From a virus (taxonomy: Duplodnaviria; Heunggongvirae; Uroviricota; Caudoviricetes): a stretch of DNA of 13,700 nucleotides. Both the position numbers and the translations under genes were made by a program. Below are positions 1 through 13,700 of this stretch, one piece after another; positions within the stretch are counted from its first letter, which is position 1, and the number at the start of each line of letters is the position of its first letter. The notes under the pieces are model-generated. The model saw nothing but the letters and a program-made list of their open reading frames with translations. It was not told the DNA's origin and ran no database searches. The stretch lies in IMG/VR virus record IMGVR_UViG_2603880148_000005, positions 1 to 13,700 of that record; one strand, given 5' to 3'.

Positions 1-379
1 TGATTGTTACCGTCTGCGATGGCAAATTGAACTGGCTTTTAAGCGGCTCAAAAGTTTGCTGCACCTGGATGCTTTGCGTGCAAAGGAACCTGAACTCGCG
101 AAAGCGTGGATATTTGCTAATCTACTCGCCGCATTTTTAATTGACGACATAATCCAGCCATCGCTGGATTTCCCCCCCAGAAGTGCCGGATCCGAAAAGA
201 AGAACTAACTCGTTGTGGAGAATAACAAAAATGGTCATCTGGAGCTTACAGGTGGCCATTCGTGGGACAGTATCCCTGACAGCCTACAAAACGCAATTGA
301 AGAACGCGAGGCATCGTCTTAACGAGGCACCGAGGCGTCGCATTCTTCAGATGGTTCAACCCTTAAGTTAGCGCTTATG
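1..379 (+). mobile_element. IS186-like (IS4 family) insertion sequence, right-hand portion; the window begins inside the element
   Basis: Frame 2 encodes a transposase C-terminus. Reverse complement of 334-379 reads CATAAGCGCTAACTTAAGGGTTGAACCATC..., which matches my recollection of the IS186 terminal inverted repeat. The flank at 380 onward (GGACCCGCCCCCGC) is the GC-rich kind of target IS186 favours. Identity to IS186 is from memory, not a search. Confidence 0.65.
2..208 (+). CDS. IS4-family DDE transposase, C-terminal fragment (5' end outside window)
   Basis: Translation ...DCYRLRWQIELAFKRLKSLLHLDALRAKEPELAKAWIFANLLAAFLIDDIIQPSLDFPPRSAGSEKKN, stop TAA at 206-208. Contains the Y-x2-R-x3-E signature of IS4-family transposases. 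Confidence 0.75.
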   Translation, partial: DCYRLRWQIELAFKRLKSLLHLDALRAKEPELAKAWIFANLLAAFLIDDIIQPSLDFPPRSAGSEKKN

Positions 380-452
380 GGACCCGCCCCCGCACCAACA
401 ACCCTGTTATCGTGTCGTCTGCTCTTCCTGATAAGCTAATGGCGGTTTGTGA

Positions 453-528
453 TGGTGGCCCTTGCTGGATTTGAACCAGCGACCTGGCGATTATGAGTCG
501 CTCGCTCTCACCACTGAGCTAAAGGGCC
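453..528 (-). tRNA. tRNA with CAU anticodon (elongator Met or lysidine-type Ile2; resembles E. coli ileX/ileY as I recall them), 76 nt, CCA encoded
   Basis: Reverse complement GGCCCTTTAGCTCAGTGGTGAGAGCGAGCGACTCATAATCGCCAGGTCGCTGGTTCAAATCCAGCAAGGGCCACCA folds as a cloverleaf: acceptor GGCCCTT/AAGGGCC, D stem GCTC/GAGC, anticodon stem GCGA/TCGC with loop CTCATAA, T stem GCTGG/CCAGC with TTCAAAT loop, discriminator A. Confidence 0.85.
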
Positions 529-577
529 GGAAGCAGAATAATAATGGTGCGTAATTAATTCTGCAATCTCATCCGTT

Positions 578-1627
578 TCAAACGATTAAATCCTGAACTT
601 CCCTGACTGTCTGCTCAAAACGTCCGGTCTCCAGTTCAACGCCAATCGCACGACGCCCCAGTGCCATCGCCGCTTTTACCGTTGAACCCGACCCCATGAA
701 AAAATCTGCAACCAGGTCACCCGGACGACTGCTTGCGCTGATTATCTGCTGCAGCATTTCTGCCGGTTTTTCGCACGGATGTTTCCCGGGATAGAACTGC
801 ACCGGTTTATGTGTCCACACATCCGTGTACGGCACCTGCGCCGTCACACCAAAATACCGCCGCAGATGCTTATATTCACTCTGCAGCTCCACATACTGCC
901 GGTTCAGTGACGTATACGTATCCACCAGCTGGTGGTGGGGCTTTTCCAGTTCACCGCGCTGATGTTTCTCTTCTGCCACCCGGGCAAACAGCGACTGTAA
1001 TTTCAGATAATCGCTTTCGTTCGGTAGCTGCCACTGACTGGCACTGAACCAGTGCGACACCATGTTTTTCTTTCCTGTGACATCTGCAATCTGTTTTGCC
1101 GTTATCCCCAGGGCCGCGCGCGCATCACGAAAGTAAGAAATCAGCGGGGCCATCACATGCTGTTTCAGTGCACTGCCCTTCGCCGCATACCCGGCATCTT
1201 TCGGACGATACGGCCCCTGATAATGTTCCGCGAACAGAATGCGCTCTGTGGCGGGGAAATACGCCCGCAGGCTTTCCTTGTTGCATCCGTTCCAGCGTCC
1301 GGACGGCTTCGCCCAGATAATATGGTTCAGCACACTGAAGCGTTCACGCATCATGATTTCGATATCAGATGCCAGGCGATGACCACAGAACAGGTAAAGA
1401 CTTCCGGCAGGTTTCAGCACCCGCCAGAACTGCGCCAGACACTGGTCCAGCCACTTCAGGTAATCATCGTCGCCCTTCCACTGGTTATCCCAGCCTTCAG
1501 GCTTCACTTTAAAGTACGGCGGGTCCGTGACTATCAGGTCAACAGAATTTTCGGGTAACGACCGGATAAATTCCAGGCAGTCGGCGTTGATTAACTCACA
1601 ACTGGATATTTTTACAGTATTAAGCAT
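578..1627 (-). CDS. DNA N6-adenine (or N4-cytosine) methyltransferase, beta-class, orphan
   Basis: 349 aa. DPPY catalytic motif near the N-terminus (LIVTDPPYF) and the SAM-binding motif FFMGSGST near the C-terminus; this motif order defines beta-class amino-methyltransferases. No nuclease partner adjacent. Confidence 0.85.
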   Translation of the reverse strand: MLNTVKISSCELINADCLEFIRSLPENSVDLIVTDPPYFKVKPEGWDNQWKGDDDYLKWLDQCLAQFWRVLKPAGSLYLFCGHRLASDIEIMMRERFSVLNHIIWAKPSGRWNGCNKESLRAYFPATERILFAEHYQGPYRPKDAGYAAKGSALKQHVMAPLISYFRDARAALGITAKQIADVTGKKNMVSHWFSASQWQLPNESDYLKLQSLFARVAEEKHQRGELEKPHHQLVDTYTSLNRQYVELQSEYKHLRRYFGVTAQVPYTDVWTHKPVQFYPGKHPCEKPAEMLQQIISASSRPGDLVADFFMGSGSTVKAAMALGRRAIGVELETGRFEQTVREVQDLIV

Positions 1628-1764
1628 GGATCATTAAGCCTGTCTCTGATAGGCTCATTCTGCTTTTGCGCAAAGCAGTGGGCCTGAGGTTTGCTTGTGA
1701 ACCCAACGCATGAGCAGATGGCTGGTGGGTGCCCCTAACACCCACCAGCCGCCCATTTACCACA

Positions 1765-1791
1765 AATAAAAAAGCCTTCACTGCGGAAGGC
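1765..1791 (-). terminator. Rho-independent terminator candidate (second terminator of the late leader)
   Basis: Plus-strand GCCTTC(actgcg)GAAGGC hairpin at 1774-1791 preceded by AAAAAA; on the minus strand this is a hairpin followed by TTTTTTATTTG. Overlaps the 3' end of the small ORF. Confidence 0.5.
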
Positions 1792-1975
1792 GTCTGTAAC
1801 AACCGAACTGATAGTCTGCCAGCCCCGCCATAACCAGCTGGGTCAGTATTAACTGGCAGCGTTCGCGTGAAAGGTAAGTATTCTGCGCTATCTCCCCGAC
1901 TGTCGCCGGTTCGGTAACGCTTAATTCATTAAACACCACTCTGGCGGTTTCTGTCATATCCTGCTGTTTTAGCAT
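1778..1975 (-). CDS. Hypothetical small protein (65 aa) in the late leader between two terminators
   Basis: ORF track 1778..2062 trimmed to ATG at 1975-1973, which is preceded by AAAAGGGAAAAAGAC (AAGGGA Shine-Dalgarno-like). Protein MLKQQDMTETARVVFNELSVTEPATVGEIAQNTYLSRERCQLILTQLVMAGLADYQFGCYRRLPQ. No family recognised. Confidence 0.4.
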   Translation of the reverse strand: MLKQQDMTETARVVFNELSVTEPATVGEIAQNTYLSRERCQLILTQLVMAGLADYQFGCYRRLPQ

Positions 1976-2094
1976 GTCTTTTTCCCTTTTCCGGTTAACG
2001 TGACACACCAATAACTCTTGTCGAAAAAGCCAGCAAGCTGAAAGACAGGTATTCACCGCCACCAGCGCGTTTACTGTACTGACGCGATTTCAGT

Positions 2095-2119
2095 CATAAA
2101 AAACCCGCCAGGCGGCGGG
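2095..2119 (-). terminator. tR'-like rho-independent terminator immediately downstream of pR'
   Basis: Stem CCCGCC (2104-2109) / GGCGGG (2114-2119), loop AGGC, A6 run at 2098-2103; on the minus strand this is a GC hairpin followed by TTTTTTAT. Confidence 0.6.
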
Positions 2120-2154
2120 GTGTAAAAAATCTTCTAACGTCAGGCATAAAACGC

Positions 2155-2196
2155 CCATCGTTAGGGCAAATTTACCACAGATTCGGGAAAAATCAA
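2155..2196 (-). promoter_or_regulatory. Late promoter pR' with qut-like pause element (lambda-type)
   Basis: Minus strand reads TTGATT-N16-TAAATTTGCCCTAACGATGGG. The -10 TAAATT and the downstream AACGATGGG match lambda pR' (GGTAAATTTGACTCAACGATGGG, as I recall it) at about 20 of 23 positions. -35 at plus 2191-2196, -10 at 2169-2174, predicted start near 2161. Confidence 0.6.
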
Positions 2197-2201
2197 CAAC
2201 A

Positions 2202-3023
2202 CTATCGCGTTACCCTCTTTAACTGCCGCTCCGCCCATGCCTCTTCAATGTCAAACCGAACCACCAACGTATCGTAAAAGCGTTTCACTGATTTTTTCCA
2301 CGTATCAAGCGTGATAGCACTCGTCACTTTGCATATGGCATTAAATGCCTCCGTTGATGGCAGCCTTTCACAGCCACGACCACCACAACGCTGGCAATCT
2401 CTGATAACAGGCATACCACGTTTTACCGACTCTTCACGATGAATGGCGACACCACGCCCACGGCAATCCTTACAGGCGGTGGAAACCTCACCCTTTCCGC
2501 CACACTCCGGACAGGCAACTTTTACCACCTCCCTGACTTTTTTCCATTCTTCCCAGTAAGACGGATACACGCCTTTTGTGCACTTTGCCCACACTGGTGG
2601 CTTACCATCCGGATACTGGATCTTGTTTGTAAAAACCTCGCTTTCAATAAATTTTTTTCCGTGACAGCAGGGGCACTGTTTTTTGCTCGCCGCGCTACGG
2701 GCATAATCTTCAAACGCATACGAAGCCATAATGCGCATCACTACCGGTTTTATTTCTGCCGGAAGTTTTCTCAACGCCGCCACACGATCGCACCGACTGA
2801 GTGCATAATCTGCCAGTAATTCTGTTGCCCGCGCCCTGTCATTCATACTGATGCCCATTTTCCCCAGGAACGCAGAAAACCCCATCTCAGCCCGATTCTG
2901 TGTCATGCCCTGCGCGGCCATCACATCAGTGATACTCAGCGCATCTTTTGACGTTGAGGCCGATGCATCGGTCAGGCCAGGGGATTTTGGGGAGTAGTAT
3001 TTCGGTAAATCTTCCAGTTTCAT
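2202..3023 (-). CDS. Late antiterminator, lambda Q family, with an expanded cysteine-rich insertion
   Basis: 273 aa. N-terminus MKLEDLPKYYSPKSPGLTDASASTSKDALSITDVMAAQGM and C-terminus TWKKSVKRFYDTLVVRFDIEEAWAERQLKRVTR align with lambda Q as I recall it (MRLESVAKFHSPKSP...GTDVMAAMGM / ...TWSRTVKPLYDALVV...NAVTR). Sits directly upstream of the pR'/qut module. Start ATG overlaps the rusA stop (ATGA). Confidence 0.85.
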   Translation of the reverse strand: MKLEDLPKYYSPKSPGLTDASASTSKDALSITDVMAAQGMTQNRAEMGFSAFLGKMGISMNDRARATELLADYALSRCDRVAALRKLPAEIKPVVMRIMASYAFEDYARSAASKKQCPCCHGKKFIESEVFTNKIQYPDGKPPVWAKCTKGVYPSYWEEWKKVREVVKVACPECGGKGEVSTACKDCRGRGVAIHREESVKRGMPVIRDCQRCGGRGCERLPSTEAFNAICKVTSAITLDTWKKSVKRFYDTLVVRFDIEEAWAERQLKRVTR

Positions 3024-3394
3024 TTTTTGACCTGCTCTTCATGCATTATGGGGTAAATCTTCACCCCCATACGTCCACCAGATACTGGCTGACCACGAAC
3101 GATATTGATTTCATCAAACTGCTCATCGTCCATTAACACTCCCGCATGCGTCAGCGCATCCAGCGGTGCTTTCAGGATATTGTCCAGGTCGCGACGACGC
3201 TTATCCGGTGGCTCTGCAATCACCTTTATCGCCAGCCTTCCGGACAGGCTTAATTTCAGCCGCTGCTGGCGAACAATAAGCGCCACAGCCCGGCGATAAC
3301 GCTTTCCCTCCTCCGAGATAAAATATGTGCTGCCACGGCGTCGCCAGTAAGTGTTCACCGTCGGCGGGTAAGGTAAAACCAAATCTATGAGCAT
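3020..3394 (-). CDS. rusA: Holliday junction resolvase RusA
   Basis: 124 aa with PDKRRRDLDNILKAPLDALTHAGVLMDDEQ, matching the RusA catalytic region (E. coli RusA has [28 protein letters not shown] as I recall). SD AGAGGTGA precedes the ATG at 3394. Confidence 0.9.
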   Translation of the reverse strand: MLIDLVLPYPPTVNTYWRRRGSTYFISEEGKRYRRAVALIVRQQRLKLSLSGRLAIKVIAEPPDKRRRDLDNILKAPLDALTHAGVLMDDEQFDEINIVRGQPVSGGRMGVKIYPIMHEEQVKK

Positions 3395-3406
3395 CAGTCA
3401 CCTCTT

Positions 3407-4453
3407 TTACCCAAGCACGCCAGTTGCAAAGGCGTGATCAAGAAAACGAAAAATTAAATCAACCTGAGAACCATGCTTTTCTTCGAACGCCAGAGGATCC
3501 GCATGAAGCTCGTTGTGATGCTCCCGACACAGCGGTAGCGTGAAAATATCGTGAGATTTTGTCCCCATTCCGCCCTGACCATGACCAATCAGGTGATGGG
3601 GATCGTCGGCTGGCTTACCACAACACGCACACGGCTGTGTCTTCACCCAGCGTGTGTATTTCTCGTTAACCCAGCGGCGACGTTTAGGTCGTTTCATGAA
3701 AGATTCCGGAGACTCAGGATCAACGGCAATGCTGACCACCGTCTCTTCCTGTGGCGGGTTTTGCTGGTGGGCGTGAGGCAGCGGCGCAAGATTTTTTGTG
3801 CGCTGCTTCAGTATGCTGGTGGCGGTCTGCTCTCCCGGTACGATGTCGCTTTCACGGTACATTGAGCGGATTTTTTCCGCACGCAACCCCAGCGAACGAC
3901 GTAATACCGCTTCCGGTAGCGCGTCCGCCACCTGATTGCGGACCGCCCACCAGGATAATTCAGCCAGCGATAATTCCCGTTCCTGCGAGCCATTCATTGC
4001 ATGGCGTATGACGTCAATCATCCATGCAGACAGGTTTTGGTGAGCAAGTTGCCCGAGTGATTCGGAGGTCTGGTCGCGCAGCTGGTTGTCGCAGTGCCAG
4101 CACAACACCATTGCGCCGGTACCATAACGGTGAATGACGGTTTCACTGTGGTGATAATCGCCGTGTGGCCACTGGCAGGATTTAACATGGCGCAGTAACC
4201 AGTCAGACAATGCGCCAGCGCCACCAGCAGCACGAATCACTCGTTCGTCGCTGAAAAATGGCAGTAATGATTTATCCTCCGCCAGCGGCTGGCGAACGAC
4301 AGGAACGACCCCGGACGGCAGATTACGCATGCTTTTCGGTTCCGGCTCCACCAGTACCCGGGTATTGTGGAATACCGGCATGGATTCACGGCCCGGCTTA
4401 ACGATCACCAGCCCGAGTTCCGGTACCAGAACAGGTCGAAGTAATACCCGCAC
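3407..4453 (-). CDS. YdfU-like prophage protein (DUF968-type, from memory) with C-terminal HNH/zinc-finger-like motif
   Basis: 348 aa, GTG start at 4453 preceded by GGAGG. C-terminus CACCGKPADDPHHLIGHGQGGMGTKSHDIFTLPLCREHHNELH has a Cys/His pattern like HNH nucleases. Same size and same position (just upstream of Q) as ydfU in the K-12 Qin prophage; that assignment is a recollection. Confidence 0.65.
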   Translation of the reverse strand: MRVLLRPVLVPELGLVIVKPGRESMPVFHNTRVLVEPEPKSMRNLPSGVVPVVRQPLAEDKSLLPFFSDERVIRAAGGAGALSDWLLRHVKSCQWPHGDYHHSETVIHRYGTGAMVLCWHCDNQLRDQTSESLGQLAHQNLSAWMIDVIRHAMNGSQERELSLAELSWWAVRNQVADALPEAVLRRSLGLRAEKIRSMYRESDIVPGEQTATSILKQRTKNLAPLPHAHQQNPPQEETVVSIAVDPESPESFMKRPKRRRWVNEKYTRWVKTQPCACCGKPADDPHHLIGHGQGGMGTKSHDIFTLPLCREHHNELHADPLAFEEKHGSQVDLIFRFLDHAFATGVLG

Positions 4454-4454
4454 G

Positions 4455-4733
4455 TTACCTCCAGATGCGTTGCTGGAATGTGCGGGACGGACGCGGTGGG
4501 CGTTCGGAATAAGGGAGTCTGACGTAGATTATCCAGTGACGATAATCGAGGGTGAGGGCTTTCCTAAACTCATATCCACGTCTGCGGTAGTTATGAATCA
4601 GCCATTCGGCCTGTTCTTCAGTGCATGGGGGATGCTGGAACCAGTCAGATTTGAAAGTGCGGGAACGCCGCCCGTGCCTGCTGGCAAAGACGGCAGAATC
4701 ATCAGAATTGTGTAATTTGGTATCGTGCGCCAT
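4455..4733 (-). CDS. Hypothetical protein (92 aa from the internal ATG)
   Basis: ORF track 4455..4814 starts at a TTG that lies inside the terminator T-tract, so I trimmed to the only in-frame ATG (4733-4731), which has only a weak SD. Stop abuts the next gene's start. No family recognised. Confidence 0.4.
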   Translation of the reverse strand: MAHDTKLHNSDDSAVFASRHGRRSRTFKSDWFQHPPCTEEQAEWLIHNYRRRGYEFRKALTLDYRHWIIYVRLPYSERPPRPSRTFQQRIWR

Positions 4734-4802
4734 CGGTTGTCTCTGCTGGCGCAGCAGGTGCCAGTTGTTCAGGCTGGCGTGTGGATTGTAAACCAGAATG
4801 CC

Positions 4803-4831
4803 AGGAAAAAACAAAACCCGCGAAGCGGGTT
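4803..4831 (-). terminator. Rho-independent terminator after the nuclease gene
   Basis: Hairpin AACCCGC(gaa)GCGGGTT at 4815-4831; on the minus strand it is followed by TTGTTTTTTCC (reverse complement of 4801-4814). Confidence 0.6.
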
Positions 4832-4903
4832 AGTAAAAATGTACTGAAGTCAATGACGTGCCATCACAGTTAAAATATGACAGACTCTATTTACGTAGAG
4901 ATG

Positions 4904-5782
4904 TCAGACTGCAAGATCCAAGGGAAGATCAGAAATATCCTTTAATCTTTTACCATTAACCATCACGGAAAGCATGTCAGCTGCATCGCTGAGCCCCAGT
5001 ATTTCAACTGCTGATATAAGTTCATAAAGCGCAAAATGATACACGCAATCTATATCACCAGTACCAAGAGCAATAGACGCCAGACGACTTGGAGTAGGCT
5101 CAGCAGTAACAACCATTACATGAGGGAGATTTCCCTTACGGTTGCGAATAAGATTTAATGCCTCAGAACGAGCATTCTGGGCCCGGTCGCTTCTTATTGT
5201 CCATTTGCAGGAAATACTTGCGTGTAATATTGGTTTCCCACCATTCGAACTCCTGAGAGCTGACATGCGGGTAACAGAATCATCCACCAGTAATTCAGGA
5301 CTGTTGATAACTTGATCACATTCAGGTTCTCTTTCAACAATAATATCTGGTGAAATCGTATAATCACTCCCCAGTGCAGCAGCTAGCTGAGGATTACTTT
5401 TTGCAGCACTATCCAATGCTATAAGATGGGCATATTGTTCATATTTAGCTATCTCTAATCTGTTTCTACCAGAAACCTGATGTACATTCCATTTTCCAGG
5501 GCGTAAGTGGCTGAGTTTAAAAAAGGTTTTTTCTATAAACTCTGCGCAGATACTCTCAAACTGATTACCAGATGTTTGCCCTGCAACACGTTCACCAATC
5601 GTTTCAGCCTGCAAGAAGCGAGCAATTTCTCTTGCTATAGCTTTACTGTTTTTGTTACTGCTATCTGCGTTACTAACAACTCCGGCAGTATTAATTGTGA
5701 GCGTATTCAGTAACAATTGGGCATGAAACTCCTTTCTGGCTTCAGCAAAACCAACTATGCTGTCAACCAAATCTCCATTCAT
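4904..5782 (-). CDS. Putative Type II restriction endonuclease (PD-(D/E)xK fold, PD...SxK...E variant), partner of the upstream C5-methyltransferase
   Basis: ORF track 4904..5917 overlaps the methyltransferase, so I trimmed to ATG 5782-5780, which is 13 nt after the methyltransferase stop and preceded by AAGGAA. Motifs ISPDIIVERE then ISCKWT then E about 17 residues on, resembling the Cfr10I/NgoMIV/SsoII-type active site. Family call is motif-level only. Confidence 0.5.
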   Translation of the reverse strand: MNGDLVDSIVGFAEARKEFHAQLLLNTLTINTAGVVSNADSSNKNSKAIAREIARFLQAETIGERVAGQTSGNQFESICAEFIEKTFFKLSHLRPGKWNVHQVSGRNRLEIAKYEQYAHLIALDSAAKSNPQLAAALGSDYTISPDIIVEREPECDQVINSPELLVDDSVTRMSALRSSNGGKPILHASISCKWTIRSDRAQNARSEALNLIRNRKGNLPHVMVVTAEPTPSRLASIALGTGDIDCVYHFALYELISAVEILGLSDAADMLSVMVNGKRLKDISDLPLDLAV

Positions 5783-5795
5783 TTCTGGATTTCCT

Positions 5796-6920
5796 TCAGG
5801 CTGCTTGACTATTCTTACTGATGTTATTCTTATACCGTCCCTGCAAAACTCCATACACATATTGTGCGATTTTTGCCGCAAATAGCGGTGGAACAGCATT
5901 CCCGATCTGCTTTGCAATCTCAGTTTTTGAACCGGTAAAAATGAAATTATCAGGAAAAGACATTAATCTCGCTGCCTCACGATGAGTTATTGGCCGATCC
6001 TCTTCCGGATGTAAATATCGCCCTTTCTCCGGTTTGAAAAACTCAGTACGAATCGTTACTGAAGGTCTGTCCCACCACAGACGTCCAAACAAATCGGTCC
6101 CTCCAGATTTCTTTTTTAGCCAGCACGCCGGGGTTATATCAGGTCTTTTTTTCTGTAAATCGAAACGGTTACCTCCTGGTGGAACCGCTTTATATCGCTC
6201 CAAAGAAACAGGTGTGGGATTACGCCCAAAATGTAAGTTCAGCGGAGGAAGTTCATTACGAATATCAGTTCCAACAGGAGCAGGTAAGTCACCAATTGCA
6301 TCACGCGTACAGACCCATTCAGGCAAAGCGACATCCTTATCAGGGGAACGATGCGTTGGTGCTGGCGGGAACGCCGGAATACTATGCACATCGAAGAGTT
6401 CTCGTTTGATACCGATTGCTATCGTTCGTTTTCTTGTCTGAGGTACTCCATAGTCAGCAGTATTCAACACCATTGGATTAAGCAGAATAAAGCCCATGGA
6501 TTTCGCTCTAAACGTAATGTCCGCAAACTCATCGCTTATCAGCAATCCGGGGACATTTTCCATGACGAACATACAAGCCCTTGAACGCTCAATGACATCC
6601 ATATAAGGCTCCCACAATGCTCTTCGGTGATCACCATAACGATTCTTATTTAATAAACTGAATCCCTGACACGGGGGGCCACCTATGACCACATCAGCCT
6701 CAGGAACAGTATTGCTGGATGCCCACTCCTCAATATTTGCCTGAACTCCATGCAAACCAAAATTGGCATTGTAGGTATTTATAGCTGCAGCATTATTATC
6801 AATAGCAAGGATACTTTCAAAGTAGTCAGACATCTCTCCATGAAGAAAACCATAAGATAATCCACCTGCCCCACAAAAGAGGTCTATCACTCTGAATTTA
6901 TTTAATTCTTTCATCCGCAT
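5796..6920 (-). CDS. DNA cytosine-5 methyltransferase
   Basis: 374 aa with the canonical C5-MTase motifs in order: FCGAGG (I), GGPPCQGFS (IV, catalytic Cys), ENV (VI), QTRKR (VIII), GNAVPP (X). Confidence 0.9.
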   Translation of the reverse strand: MRMKELNKFRVIDLFCGAGGLSYGFLHGEMSDYFESILAIDNNAAAINTYNANFGLHGVQANIEEWASSNTVPEADVVIGGPPCQGFSLLNKNRYGDHRRALWEPYMDVIERSRACMFVMENVPGLLISDEFADITFRAKSMGFILLNPMVLNTADYGVPQTRKRTIAIGIKRELFDVHSIPAFPPAPTHRSPDKDVALPEWVCTRDAIGDLPAPVGTDIRNELPPLNLHFGRNPTPVSLERYKAVPPGGNRFDLQKKRPDITPACWLKKKSGGTDLFGRLWWDRPSVTIRTEFFKPEKGRYLHPEEDRPITHREAARLMSFPDNFIFTGSKTEIAKQIGNAVPPLFAAKIAQYVYGVLQGRYKNNISKNSQAA

Positions 6921-7003
6921 CCATATGCCTCAGATTAATGTTGAGCGTCTTACAGGACGCGTAATGTTAACTGGGGCTTTCTCTATCTGCCTTTTGGTGT
7001 TCA

Positions 7004-7028
7004 TGCCTGAGGCAGACAGCCTCAGGCA
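7004..7028. repeat. Perfect 10-bp-stem inverted repeat in the QueH-like/methyltransferase intergenic region
   Basis: TGCCTGAGGC (7004-7013), loop AGACA, GCCTCAGGCA (7019-7028). No T-tract on either side, so not a canonical intrinsic terminator. Confidence 0.5.
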
Positions 7029-7098
7029 CCCGCAGCAATTCTACTTAACTCACGTCACCTCGCCAATATGAAATCAATCAGAAAGGTGATCCATAAAA

Positions 7099-13303: not shown

Positions 13304-13700
13304 TGAACCGCCCCGGGTTTCCTGGAGAGTGTTTTATCTGTGAACTCAGGCTGCCAGATCATCGTTTCCGATGGAAGCATAATAAGCTTTTTCTGCTTCT
13401 GCCGGAGGAGTATGGCCCAGCCTTCCCAGCAATCGTCGATTGTTATACCAGTCCACCCACGTTAGTGTGGCCAGTTCCACTTCTGCACGGTTTTTCCAGC
13501 TCTTACGGTGTATTACCTCCGCTTTGTAAAGACCATTGATGCTCTCAGCCATCGCGTTGTCATACGAGTCGCCTGTACTCCCTGTTGATGCCAGTAATCC
13601 GGCTTCTTTTAGTCGCTCCGTATAGGCCAGTGACACATACTGAGAGCCTTTATCGCTGTGATGGATGGTGCCAGACGGACGACGGGCCCACAACGCCTGC
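13304..13700 (-). mobile_element. IS3-family insertion sequence (IS629/IS1203-like by terminal repeat), end portion; continues beyond the window
   Basis: Terminal sequence TGAACCGCCCCGGGTTTCCTGGAGAG starting at 13304 resembles the IS629 inverted repeat as I recall it (TGAACCGCCCCGGG...). Encloses the transposase fragment below. Confidence 0.6.
13346..13700 (-). CDS. IS3-family transposase OrfB, C-terminal fragment (N-terminus outside window)
   Basis: Contains HSDKGSQY (second catalytic Asp region of the DDE motif) and DSYDNAMAESINGLYKAEVIHR. The reading frame is open to the window edge, so the ORF-track M at 13693 is not the real start. Confidence 0.8.
   Translation of the reverse strand, partial: QALWARRPSGTIHHSDKGSQYVSLAYTERLKEAGLLASTGSTGDSYDNAMAESINGLYKAEVIHRKSWKNRAEVELATLTWVDWYNNRRLLGRLGHTPPAEAEKAYYASIGNDDLAA

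Follow-up and report, generated by a model that had tools for sequence, protein, structure and literature searches.

A probable Q-lambda-type late-gene regulatory cassette with a short leader in a lambdoid Escherichia coli prophage

The element and its place in the prophage

We analysed positions 2,095 to 2,196 of a 13,700-nt stretch of tailed-phage DNA (IMG/VR record IMGVR_UViG_2603880148_000005, positions 1 to 13,700; referred to here as the window) and consider it highly probable that they belong to a Q-lambda-type cassette for late-gene regulation in a lambdoid E. coli prophage. Such a cassette is defined by a Q gene, the PR' promoter, a Q-binding element (QBE), a sigma-dependent pause element, a terminator, and late genes (PMC9388147). 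All of the cassette features, and the genes around them, lie on the minus strand of the window, where a Q gene of Pfam family PF03589 is found upstream, the pause sequence AACGAT at +1 to +6 is followed by GGG at +7 to +9, and an intrinsic terminator precedes the late genes. The analysis establishes which sequence elements are present and how they are spaced, the homology of Q and its fold, the conservation of the layout in relatives, and the same-strand position of the late genes downstream. Judged by these comparisons, the element appears to be an ordinary, uncharacterised member of the textbook cassette, with its own candidate Q-binding spacer and a short leader typical of its family.

The late genes inside the window are limited to a methylase gene and one tRNA, and the genes beyond it can be read from the prophage of strain NCTC86, which is 99.7% identical. 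On one strand, the NCTC86 prophage carries replication genes, nin-type genes, hokD, DUF968, RusA, Q, a small ORF, and the methylase; tRNAs, holin, lysozyme, terminase, and capsid genes follow the methylase on the same strand, which places lysis and morphogenesis genes downstream of the cassette. This order is a standard lambdoid one, and the element occupies exactly the place of pR'/tR'. Of 5426 complete E. coli genomes, 1095 cover at least 80% of a 661-bp region around the element, and in 212 records the identity is 99% or higher. About one in five complete E. coli genomes has the leader of about 65 nt.

The first gene after the terminator is a 65-aa ORF (1778..1975, minus strand) with a TrmB-like winged-helix match below the Pfam cut-off (E 0.0026), annotated as hypothetical in related phages. 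It heads the late unit, sits between two terminators, and moves together with the terminator and the methylase among phages that have different Q genes. The second intrinsic terminator (1768..1791, minus strand), found in the terminator scan, overlaps the stop codon of this ORF, and the next gene in the late unit encodes a DNA methyltransferase (578..1627, minus strand; PF01555, 1.7e-44). A 150-nt segment (1625-1775, minus strand) that separates the second terminator from the start codon of the methylase folds strongly, at -61.7 kcal/mol (z -3.6) and contains a 14-bp hairpin (GGCUGGUGGGUG.../...CACCCACCAGCC). The start of this hairpin motif (GGGCGGCTGGTGGGTGT) also occurs after the terminator in a Kosakonia locus (L043), and the match of the segment to the Rfam P26 family is weak, sub-threshold, and driven by the hairpin. 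Farther away, positions 6851-7031 (minus strand) match the sok antitoxin RNA of Rfam at 61 bits against a gathering score of 59, and hokD is annotated in the nin region of the near-identical NCTC86 prophage. The tRNA at 453-528 (minus strand) has a CAT anticodon and is called tRNA-Met by ARAGORN. Because the first tRNA after the methylase in the NCTC86 prophage is annotated as tRNA-Ile, the window tRNA may be a lysidine-type tRNA-Ile like those upstream of stx in Stx phages.

The predicted promoter and its pause element

Read on the minus strand from 2196 to 2098, the element runs TTGATT-(16 bp)-TAAATT-TGCCCT-AACGATGGG-CGTTTTATGCCTGACGTT-AGAAGATTTTTTACAC-CCCGCCgcctGGCGGG-TTTTTT. The joint pattern TAAATTTGNNNNAACGATGGG has a single match in the window, at 2174..2154 on the minus strand, and was found in none of 200 shuffles. 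The -10 hexamer TAAATT (2169..2174, minus strand) is identical to that of lambda pR' and is separated by 6 bp from AACGATGGG (2154..2162, minus strand), which comprises the putative start A2162, the pause element AACGAT at +1 to +6, and GGG at +7 to +9. We placed +1 at A2162 by analogy with lambda, where the pause element is AACGAT at +1 to +6 plus GGG and the pause falls at +16 (PMC4005639). A pause is accordingly predicted, from lambda, at +16/+17 (2146..2147, minus strand), where U17 is followed by G18. T17 is invariant across a 20-sequence leader alignment, and by analogy both this invariance and the U17-G18 step after the pause element would fit a pause at +16/+17.

The -35 hexamer TTGATT (2191..2196, minus strand; -34 to -29), which was read directly from the sequence, agrees with the consensus at 4 of 6 positions and is not conserved with lambda, which has TTGACT. 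It is a weak -35 element. Together with TAAATT it scores 8 of 12 in our generic promoter scan, one below the calling threshold of 9, and for this reason the scan is silent on the site. Between the two hexamers lies a 16-bp spacer, TTTCCCGAATCTGTGG (2175..2190, minus strand; -28 to -13), which contains an extended -10 TG at -15/-14 (2177-2176, minus strand).

We aligned positions 43800-45600 of lambda with the window region. The two share the order of parts, the Pfam family and fold of Q, the TAAATT hexamer, the 6-bp gap, AACGATGGG at +1 to +9, and an intrinsic terminator ahead of the late genes. The original prediction described the module as conserved almost base for base with lambda and singled out the -10 through the pause element as the matching part. 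The narrower statement is borne out, with TAAATT identical and 9 of 9 positions shared at +1 to +9, and the broader one holds for a 23-bp core (20/23 over -14 to +9, including 9/12 at -12 to -1) but not for the -35, the spacer, or the sequence from +10 onward. Identity outside the core falls to 8/17 at -29 to -13, 3/18 at +10 to +27, and 4/16 at +28 to +43.

Several differences concern the promoter itself. The spacer is 16 bp in the window and 17 in lambda, the extended -10 TG is present in the window and absent from lambda pR', and the -35-like TTGACT just upstream of the lambda pause element is replaced by TTGCCC. The spacer presumed to bind Q also differs from that of lambda (8/17). The conserved spacer TTTCCCGAATCTGTGG is, judging from the alignments, the natural candidate for the binding element of the window Q. 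Because this element is not that of lambda, activation of the window promoter by lambda Q should not be assumed. This divergence was missed by the original prediction, as was the status of the short leader as a family norm rather than a peculiarity.

Point changes alter the pause element of some related prophages (AATGAT, AATAAT, AACTAT), and therefore not every related copy need be active.

The Q antiterminator

The stop codon of the Q gene (2202..3023, minus strand; 273 aa) lies 39 nt ahead of +1 on the same strand. Its product matches Pfam Antiterm PF03589 at 2e-49, a family named as Q-lambda (PMC9388147), and also gives a sub-threshold match to DnaJ_CXXCXGXG. It is 31% identical to lambda Q and 66 aa longer. 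Residues 1-113 and 182-273 align to residues 1-113 and 116-207 of Q-lambda (PDB 7ubm/7ubn/4mo1), which places the extra residues in the zinc arm; in lambda Q, residues 114-152 form this zinc-ribbon "arm", residues 1-44 the exit-channel torus, and residues 61-113 and 153-207 the helix-turn-helix body (PMC9388147).

In an alignment of 30 homologues, eight cysteines are invariant and form four CxxC motifs (C117/C120, C171/C174, C184/C187, and C210/C213), against two CxxC motifs in lambda Q. The arrangement is suggestive of a pair of zinc centres like those in the cysteine-rich domain of DnaJ. An expanded zinc-binding insertion, as had been proposed from the sequence, is thus real, with four CxxC motifs, eight invariant cysteines, and the DnaJ_CXXCXGXG signature. 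It is not restricted to this phage: a database search returned 599 Q homologues, with PF03589 and PF00684 on most of the matches listed, and E. coli members number in the thousands in some of the homologue clusters. Q proteins with expanded zinc binding therefore form a large subfamily that is already catalogued.

An AlphaFold model built from the same 30-homologue alignment (pLDDT 72.9, moderate) has a long beta-hairpin at 125-136/159-170, and its significant PDB matches are eight Q-lambda chains only (best 7ubn_Q, E 3e-12). Residues G39, L202, and T206, which matter for antitermination by lambda Q (PMC9388147), are identical in the two proteins in our alignments. Family membership, the Q-lambda structures, these three residues, and the pause element all support the proposal that the window Q probably engages RNA polymerase in the lambda manner. 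The enlarged zinc arm could alter the geometry of loading.

The terminated leader

The terminator tR' (2098..2119, minus strand) was found in our terminator scan as a stem CCCGCC/GGCGGG with six G-C pairs and a 4-nt loop, followed by TTTTTT. The stem-loop occupies 2119..2104 (+44 to +59) and the U-tract 2103..2098 (+60 to +65), in agreement with the +45 to +65 first estimated. On the plus strand no T-run follows the stem, so tR' works in the minus-strand direction alone. In SfV and Ayreon, the homologous hairpin already carries a terminator annotation. Another terminator-like hairpin from the scan, at 2168..2152, begins ahead of +1 and has a left arm that close relatives do not share (TGCTCT in L029 and L130); we attribute it to chance.

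A transcript ended at tR' would be about 65 nt long, against about 194 nt for the lambda leader, and the expectation of an RNA far shorter than the lambda 6S RNA is upheld. There is no similarity to lambda past +9. We rule out a homologue of the lambda 6S RNA, given the restriction of common sequence to +1 to +9 (3/18 at +10 to +27) and the length of about 65 nt. The 65-nt leader folds as two hairpins (-21.9 kcal/mol, z -2.5) joined by an unpaired A/U-rich linker, AGAAGAUUUUUUACAC (2120..2135, minus strand; +28 to +43 in the fold). Among relatives this linker varies in sequence and, between 1 and 20 nt, in length.

Rfam searches of the whole window at the gathering threshold, and of positions 1550-2260 at an E-value threshold, gave nothing credible for the leader; the best matches, suhB/mmgR (17.8 bits) and Trp_leader (15.2 bits), are far under the cut-offs. 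Literature searches with the motif string, quuQ/ydfT, and sigma-dependent pausing in the Qin prophage returned nothing on this cassette.

Short leaders among relatives

We scanned one genome per species with the window Q as query and obtained 41 loci with Q proteins 38-98% identical to it, from Escherichia, Klebsiella, Enterobacter, Kluyvera, Silvania, Kosakonia, Mangrovibacter, and other genera of the Enterobacteriaceae. The sequence AACGATGG lies 45-80 nt past the Q stop codon in 33 of the 41 loci, and five to six further loci have a pause element that differs at one or two positions. A terminator ending between +53 and +71 follows the exact or one- to two-mismatch motif in 38 of the 41. The terminator finder used for these counts requires a perfect stem and a U-tract, and it misses lambda-type long leaders.

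A query of IMG/VR with lambda Q gave 80 loci, mostly with near-identical Q genes; it added little new Q diversity and exposed different leader types. Thirty-six of the 80 have a short leader ending at +55 to +59, within the range above, and most of the others have the lambda-type long leader. The exact spacer plus -10 block is present in at least 120 IMG/VR contigs, among which there are 57 distinct leaders, all of short types among those listed; the exact leader of the window accounts for 32 of the 120 contigs. By these counts, the short tR' predominates within our sample of the Q-lambda family, and the lambda 6S RNA does not.

Promoter specificity and mosaic joints

Two groups of relatives share different parts of the cassette. 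The first comprises SfV, the Qin prophage of K-12 with ydfT (quuQ), and Ayreon, which have the same layout and a long Q with four CxxC motifs (YdfT has 250 aa and is 40% identical to the window Q). In these, AACGATGGGC is followed by a leader identical to that of the window at 13-14 of 18 positions over +10 to +27 and by a short terminator ending at +63 to +65; SfV and Ayreon also have the same small ORF and methylase after the terminator. Their promoters and spacers differ from the window (TTGCAT, TTTTTCAAAAAATATGG, and TAAGAT/TAAAAT), and because of this difference the sequences imply a different Q specificity. After ydfT, K-12 itself has a predicted 63-nt leader at NC_000913.3 1642360-1642422 (minus strand; L048 561-623, minus strand), which is unannotated in RefSeq and on which we found no paper.

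The second group comprises cassettes from Enterobacter, Kluyvera, and Klebsiella (L007-L031), with Q proteins 54-63% identical to that of the window, an extended -10 TG, and the same pause element. Here it is the spacer that is kept: at -29 to -13 the window is identical to the Enterobacter locus L010 (Q 59% identical) at 17 of 17 positions, the sequence is near-identical across L007-L031, and identity to lambda, SfV, and Qin is 8 of 17. The reverse is found at +10 to +27, where the window matches SfV and Qin at 13-14 of 18 positions and L010 at 3 of 18. The leader type of L007-L031 also differs, with a 5' hairpin of 23 nt, hardly any linker, and a terminator of 12 bp that begins at +26 and ends at +53 to +58. 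On sequence grounds, a spacer shared with L010 and unlike that of lambda fits a distinct cognate Q site.

The breakpoints of similarity are sharp. Similarity between SfV and the window starts exactly at +1 (2162, minus strand; query position 99). In phiP27 and many Stx2 phages it starts at the first base of the terminator stem (window 2119; query 142-143), and phiP27 has a Q of different length farther upstream and an unrelated gene before the terminator. Ayreon carries the terminator twice, on either side of a two-gene insert. The loci with these joints are L002, L003, and L005. The cassette is thus built of exchangeable pieces, namely Q with its promoter and binding site, the leader plus terminator, and the terminator plus small ORF and methylase. 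These pieces are joined at the conserved pause element and at the terminator.

The Stx2a phage Stx2_EH1910 (L004 1501-3658) has the same 273-aa Q, promoter, and short leader, and is 92.9% identical over the queried region. Its cassette lies upstream of the methylase, tRNAs, and stx2A, and in this phage would govern Shiga toxin 2 expression.

A hairpin on the pause element

The first 27 nt of the predicted transcript (2136..2162, minus strand; +1 to +27) fold into a hairpin of -8.6 kcal/mol (z -2.2), in which the RNA copy of the pause element serves as 5' arm and pairs with +18 to +27. A similar fold, with the first 23-27 nt folded from +1 or +2 and AACGAUGGG as 5' arm, occurs in most of the Q-lambda-family leaders that we examined. 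The equivalent hairpin is at 779-803 of the lambda locus (L001), where it has 9 bp and -9.1 kcal/mol, and in loci L006-L249; the Enterobacter-type version has 23 nt.

The pairing is well maintained in the 20-sequence alignment, where 93% of cells are paired; sliding the partner lowers this to 27-57%. Changes in the 3' arm are all compatible with wobble pairing (C/U opposite G, A/G opposite U), and two loci with the pause element AAGAAT have ATTCTT in the 3' arm. When shuffled with +1 to +9 fixed, 10 of the 12 representatives gave per-sequence fractions of 0.004-0.06. Evidence of covariation is weak: the column-shuffle control was not exceeded, with 28-125 of 500 shuffles reaching the observed values, and the pause-element variants AATAAT, AACTAT, and AACAAT have no compensating change in the 3' arm. 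The representatives of L092 and L118 showed no 5'-end pairing within the 30 nt folded. It also counts against the hairpin that its bases overlap the +17 to +36 stretch, which affects scrunching at the DNA level (PMC4005639).

The 5' hairpin may be a selected, so far undescribed component of late transcripts in the Q-lambda family, and the leader of about 65 nt might play its own part in lysogens; we would give this idea perhaps one chance in a few. Stem-loops at a 5' terminus can protect RNAs from decay that depends on the 5' end. By extension, our best guess is that the hairpin would shield pR' transcripts from the same kind of decay.

Alternative readings of the leader

The leader could also be a functional prophage small RNA, made constitutively in lysogens in the manner of StxS and adding to the Q switch rather than replacing it. 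In Stx phages, StxS is a short RNA ended just past the constitutive late promoter in the lysogen; this by-product of pR' and tR' can be an Hfq-binding regulator, and its authors propose antiterminated phage promoters as a source of small RNAs (PMC7547250). The leader of the window is built along such lines, with a 5' hairpin, the unpaired linker AGAAGAUUUUUU, and a U-tailed terminator, and the linker and tail resemble an Hfq site. However, StxS is 258 nt long, is processed by RNase E to 74 nt, and has a demonstrated function (PMC7547250), whereas the window leader is a predicted RNA known from its sequence. The linker, the sole candidate for a seed, is unconserved and nearly absent in the Enterobacter/Kluyvera type, and the U-tract has 6 nt as opposed to the 7 or more described for Hfq-binding small RNAs (PMC5558911). 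Without a conserved seed and with this short U-tract, the leader does not qualify as an Hfq-dependent trans-acting small RNA by that description. No Rfam family matches it, and we found no paper on an RNA from the window site or from K-12 ydfT. This reading is possible but unsupported, and we think it rather improbable.

A second alternative treats the motif as a decayed relic within a cryptic prophage, in which the hairpin would only end early or Q-gene transcription and there would be no Q switch. E. coli has many defective lambdoid prophages, the Qin copy lies in a cryptic prophage, and some copies elsewhere have pause-element mutations. In the window, however, all elements are intact, Q is a full-length ORF, and all eight family-invariant zinc-binding cysteines are present; the near-identical NCTC86 prophage retains replication, lysis, terminase, and capsid genes, and the exact leader recurs in the IMG/VR contigs counted above. 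We regard decay as quite unlikely here. Least plausible is a translated attenuator in which translation controls the hairpin: a 22-codon ORF (MGVLCLTLEDFLHPAAWRVFYD) does run from an AUG at +4 through the terminator, and ribosomes on it would cover the terminator stem, but the AUG is simply part of the pause element and would lie inside the 5' hairpin, it follows a leader of only 3 nt with no Shine-Dalgarno sequence, the same AUG in lambda meets a stop after two codons, and neither frame nor length is conserved among relatives, so we reject a leader peptide.

Proposed mechanism and significance

We thus favour a Q-dependent late-gene switch of the lambda kind. [quoted passage not shown] For the window, we infer a start site, a pause, promoter activity, binding of Q to the spacer, and read-through along similar lines. 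The sigma70 promoter, with its extended -10 and TAAATT, would fire from A2162, and sigma70 region 2 would re-bind the -10-like AACGAT and GGG at +1 to +9 and hold RNA polymerase scrunched near +16/+17. Without Q, the polymerase would escape and terminate at +44 to +65, yielding an RNA of about 65 nt with two hairpins. When Q is present, it would bind its own spacer site (candidate TTTCCCGAATCTGTGG, not the lambda site), load onto the paused complex, and form an exit-channel nozzle as described for Q-lambda. The modified polymerase would then read through tR' and the terminator at 1791..1768 into the methylase, tRNA, lysis, and morphogenesis genes. Loading at +16/+17 can be reconciled with a terminator start at +44 and, in the Enterobacter type, at +26.

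By itself the element adds little, as the expected late switch of a very common type of E. coli prophage. Its interest lies with its relatives. Phages with a four-CxxC Q (QuuQ/YdfT type) have kept the lambda pause element together with at least two non-lambda promoter spacers, and these spacers are natural specificity variants for asking how the longer zinc arm reads its DNA site. In the sampled family, leaders of 53-71 nt prevail over the 194-nt 6S layout of lambda.
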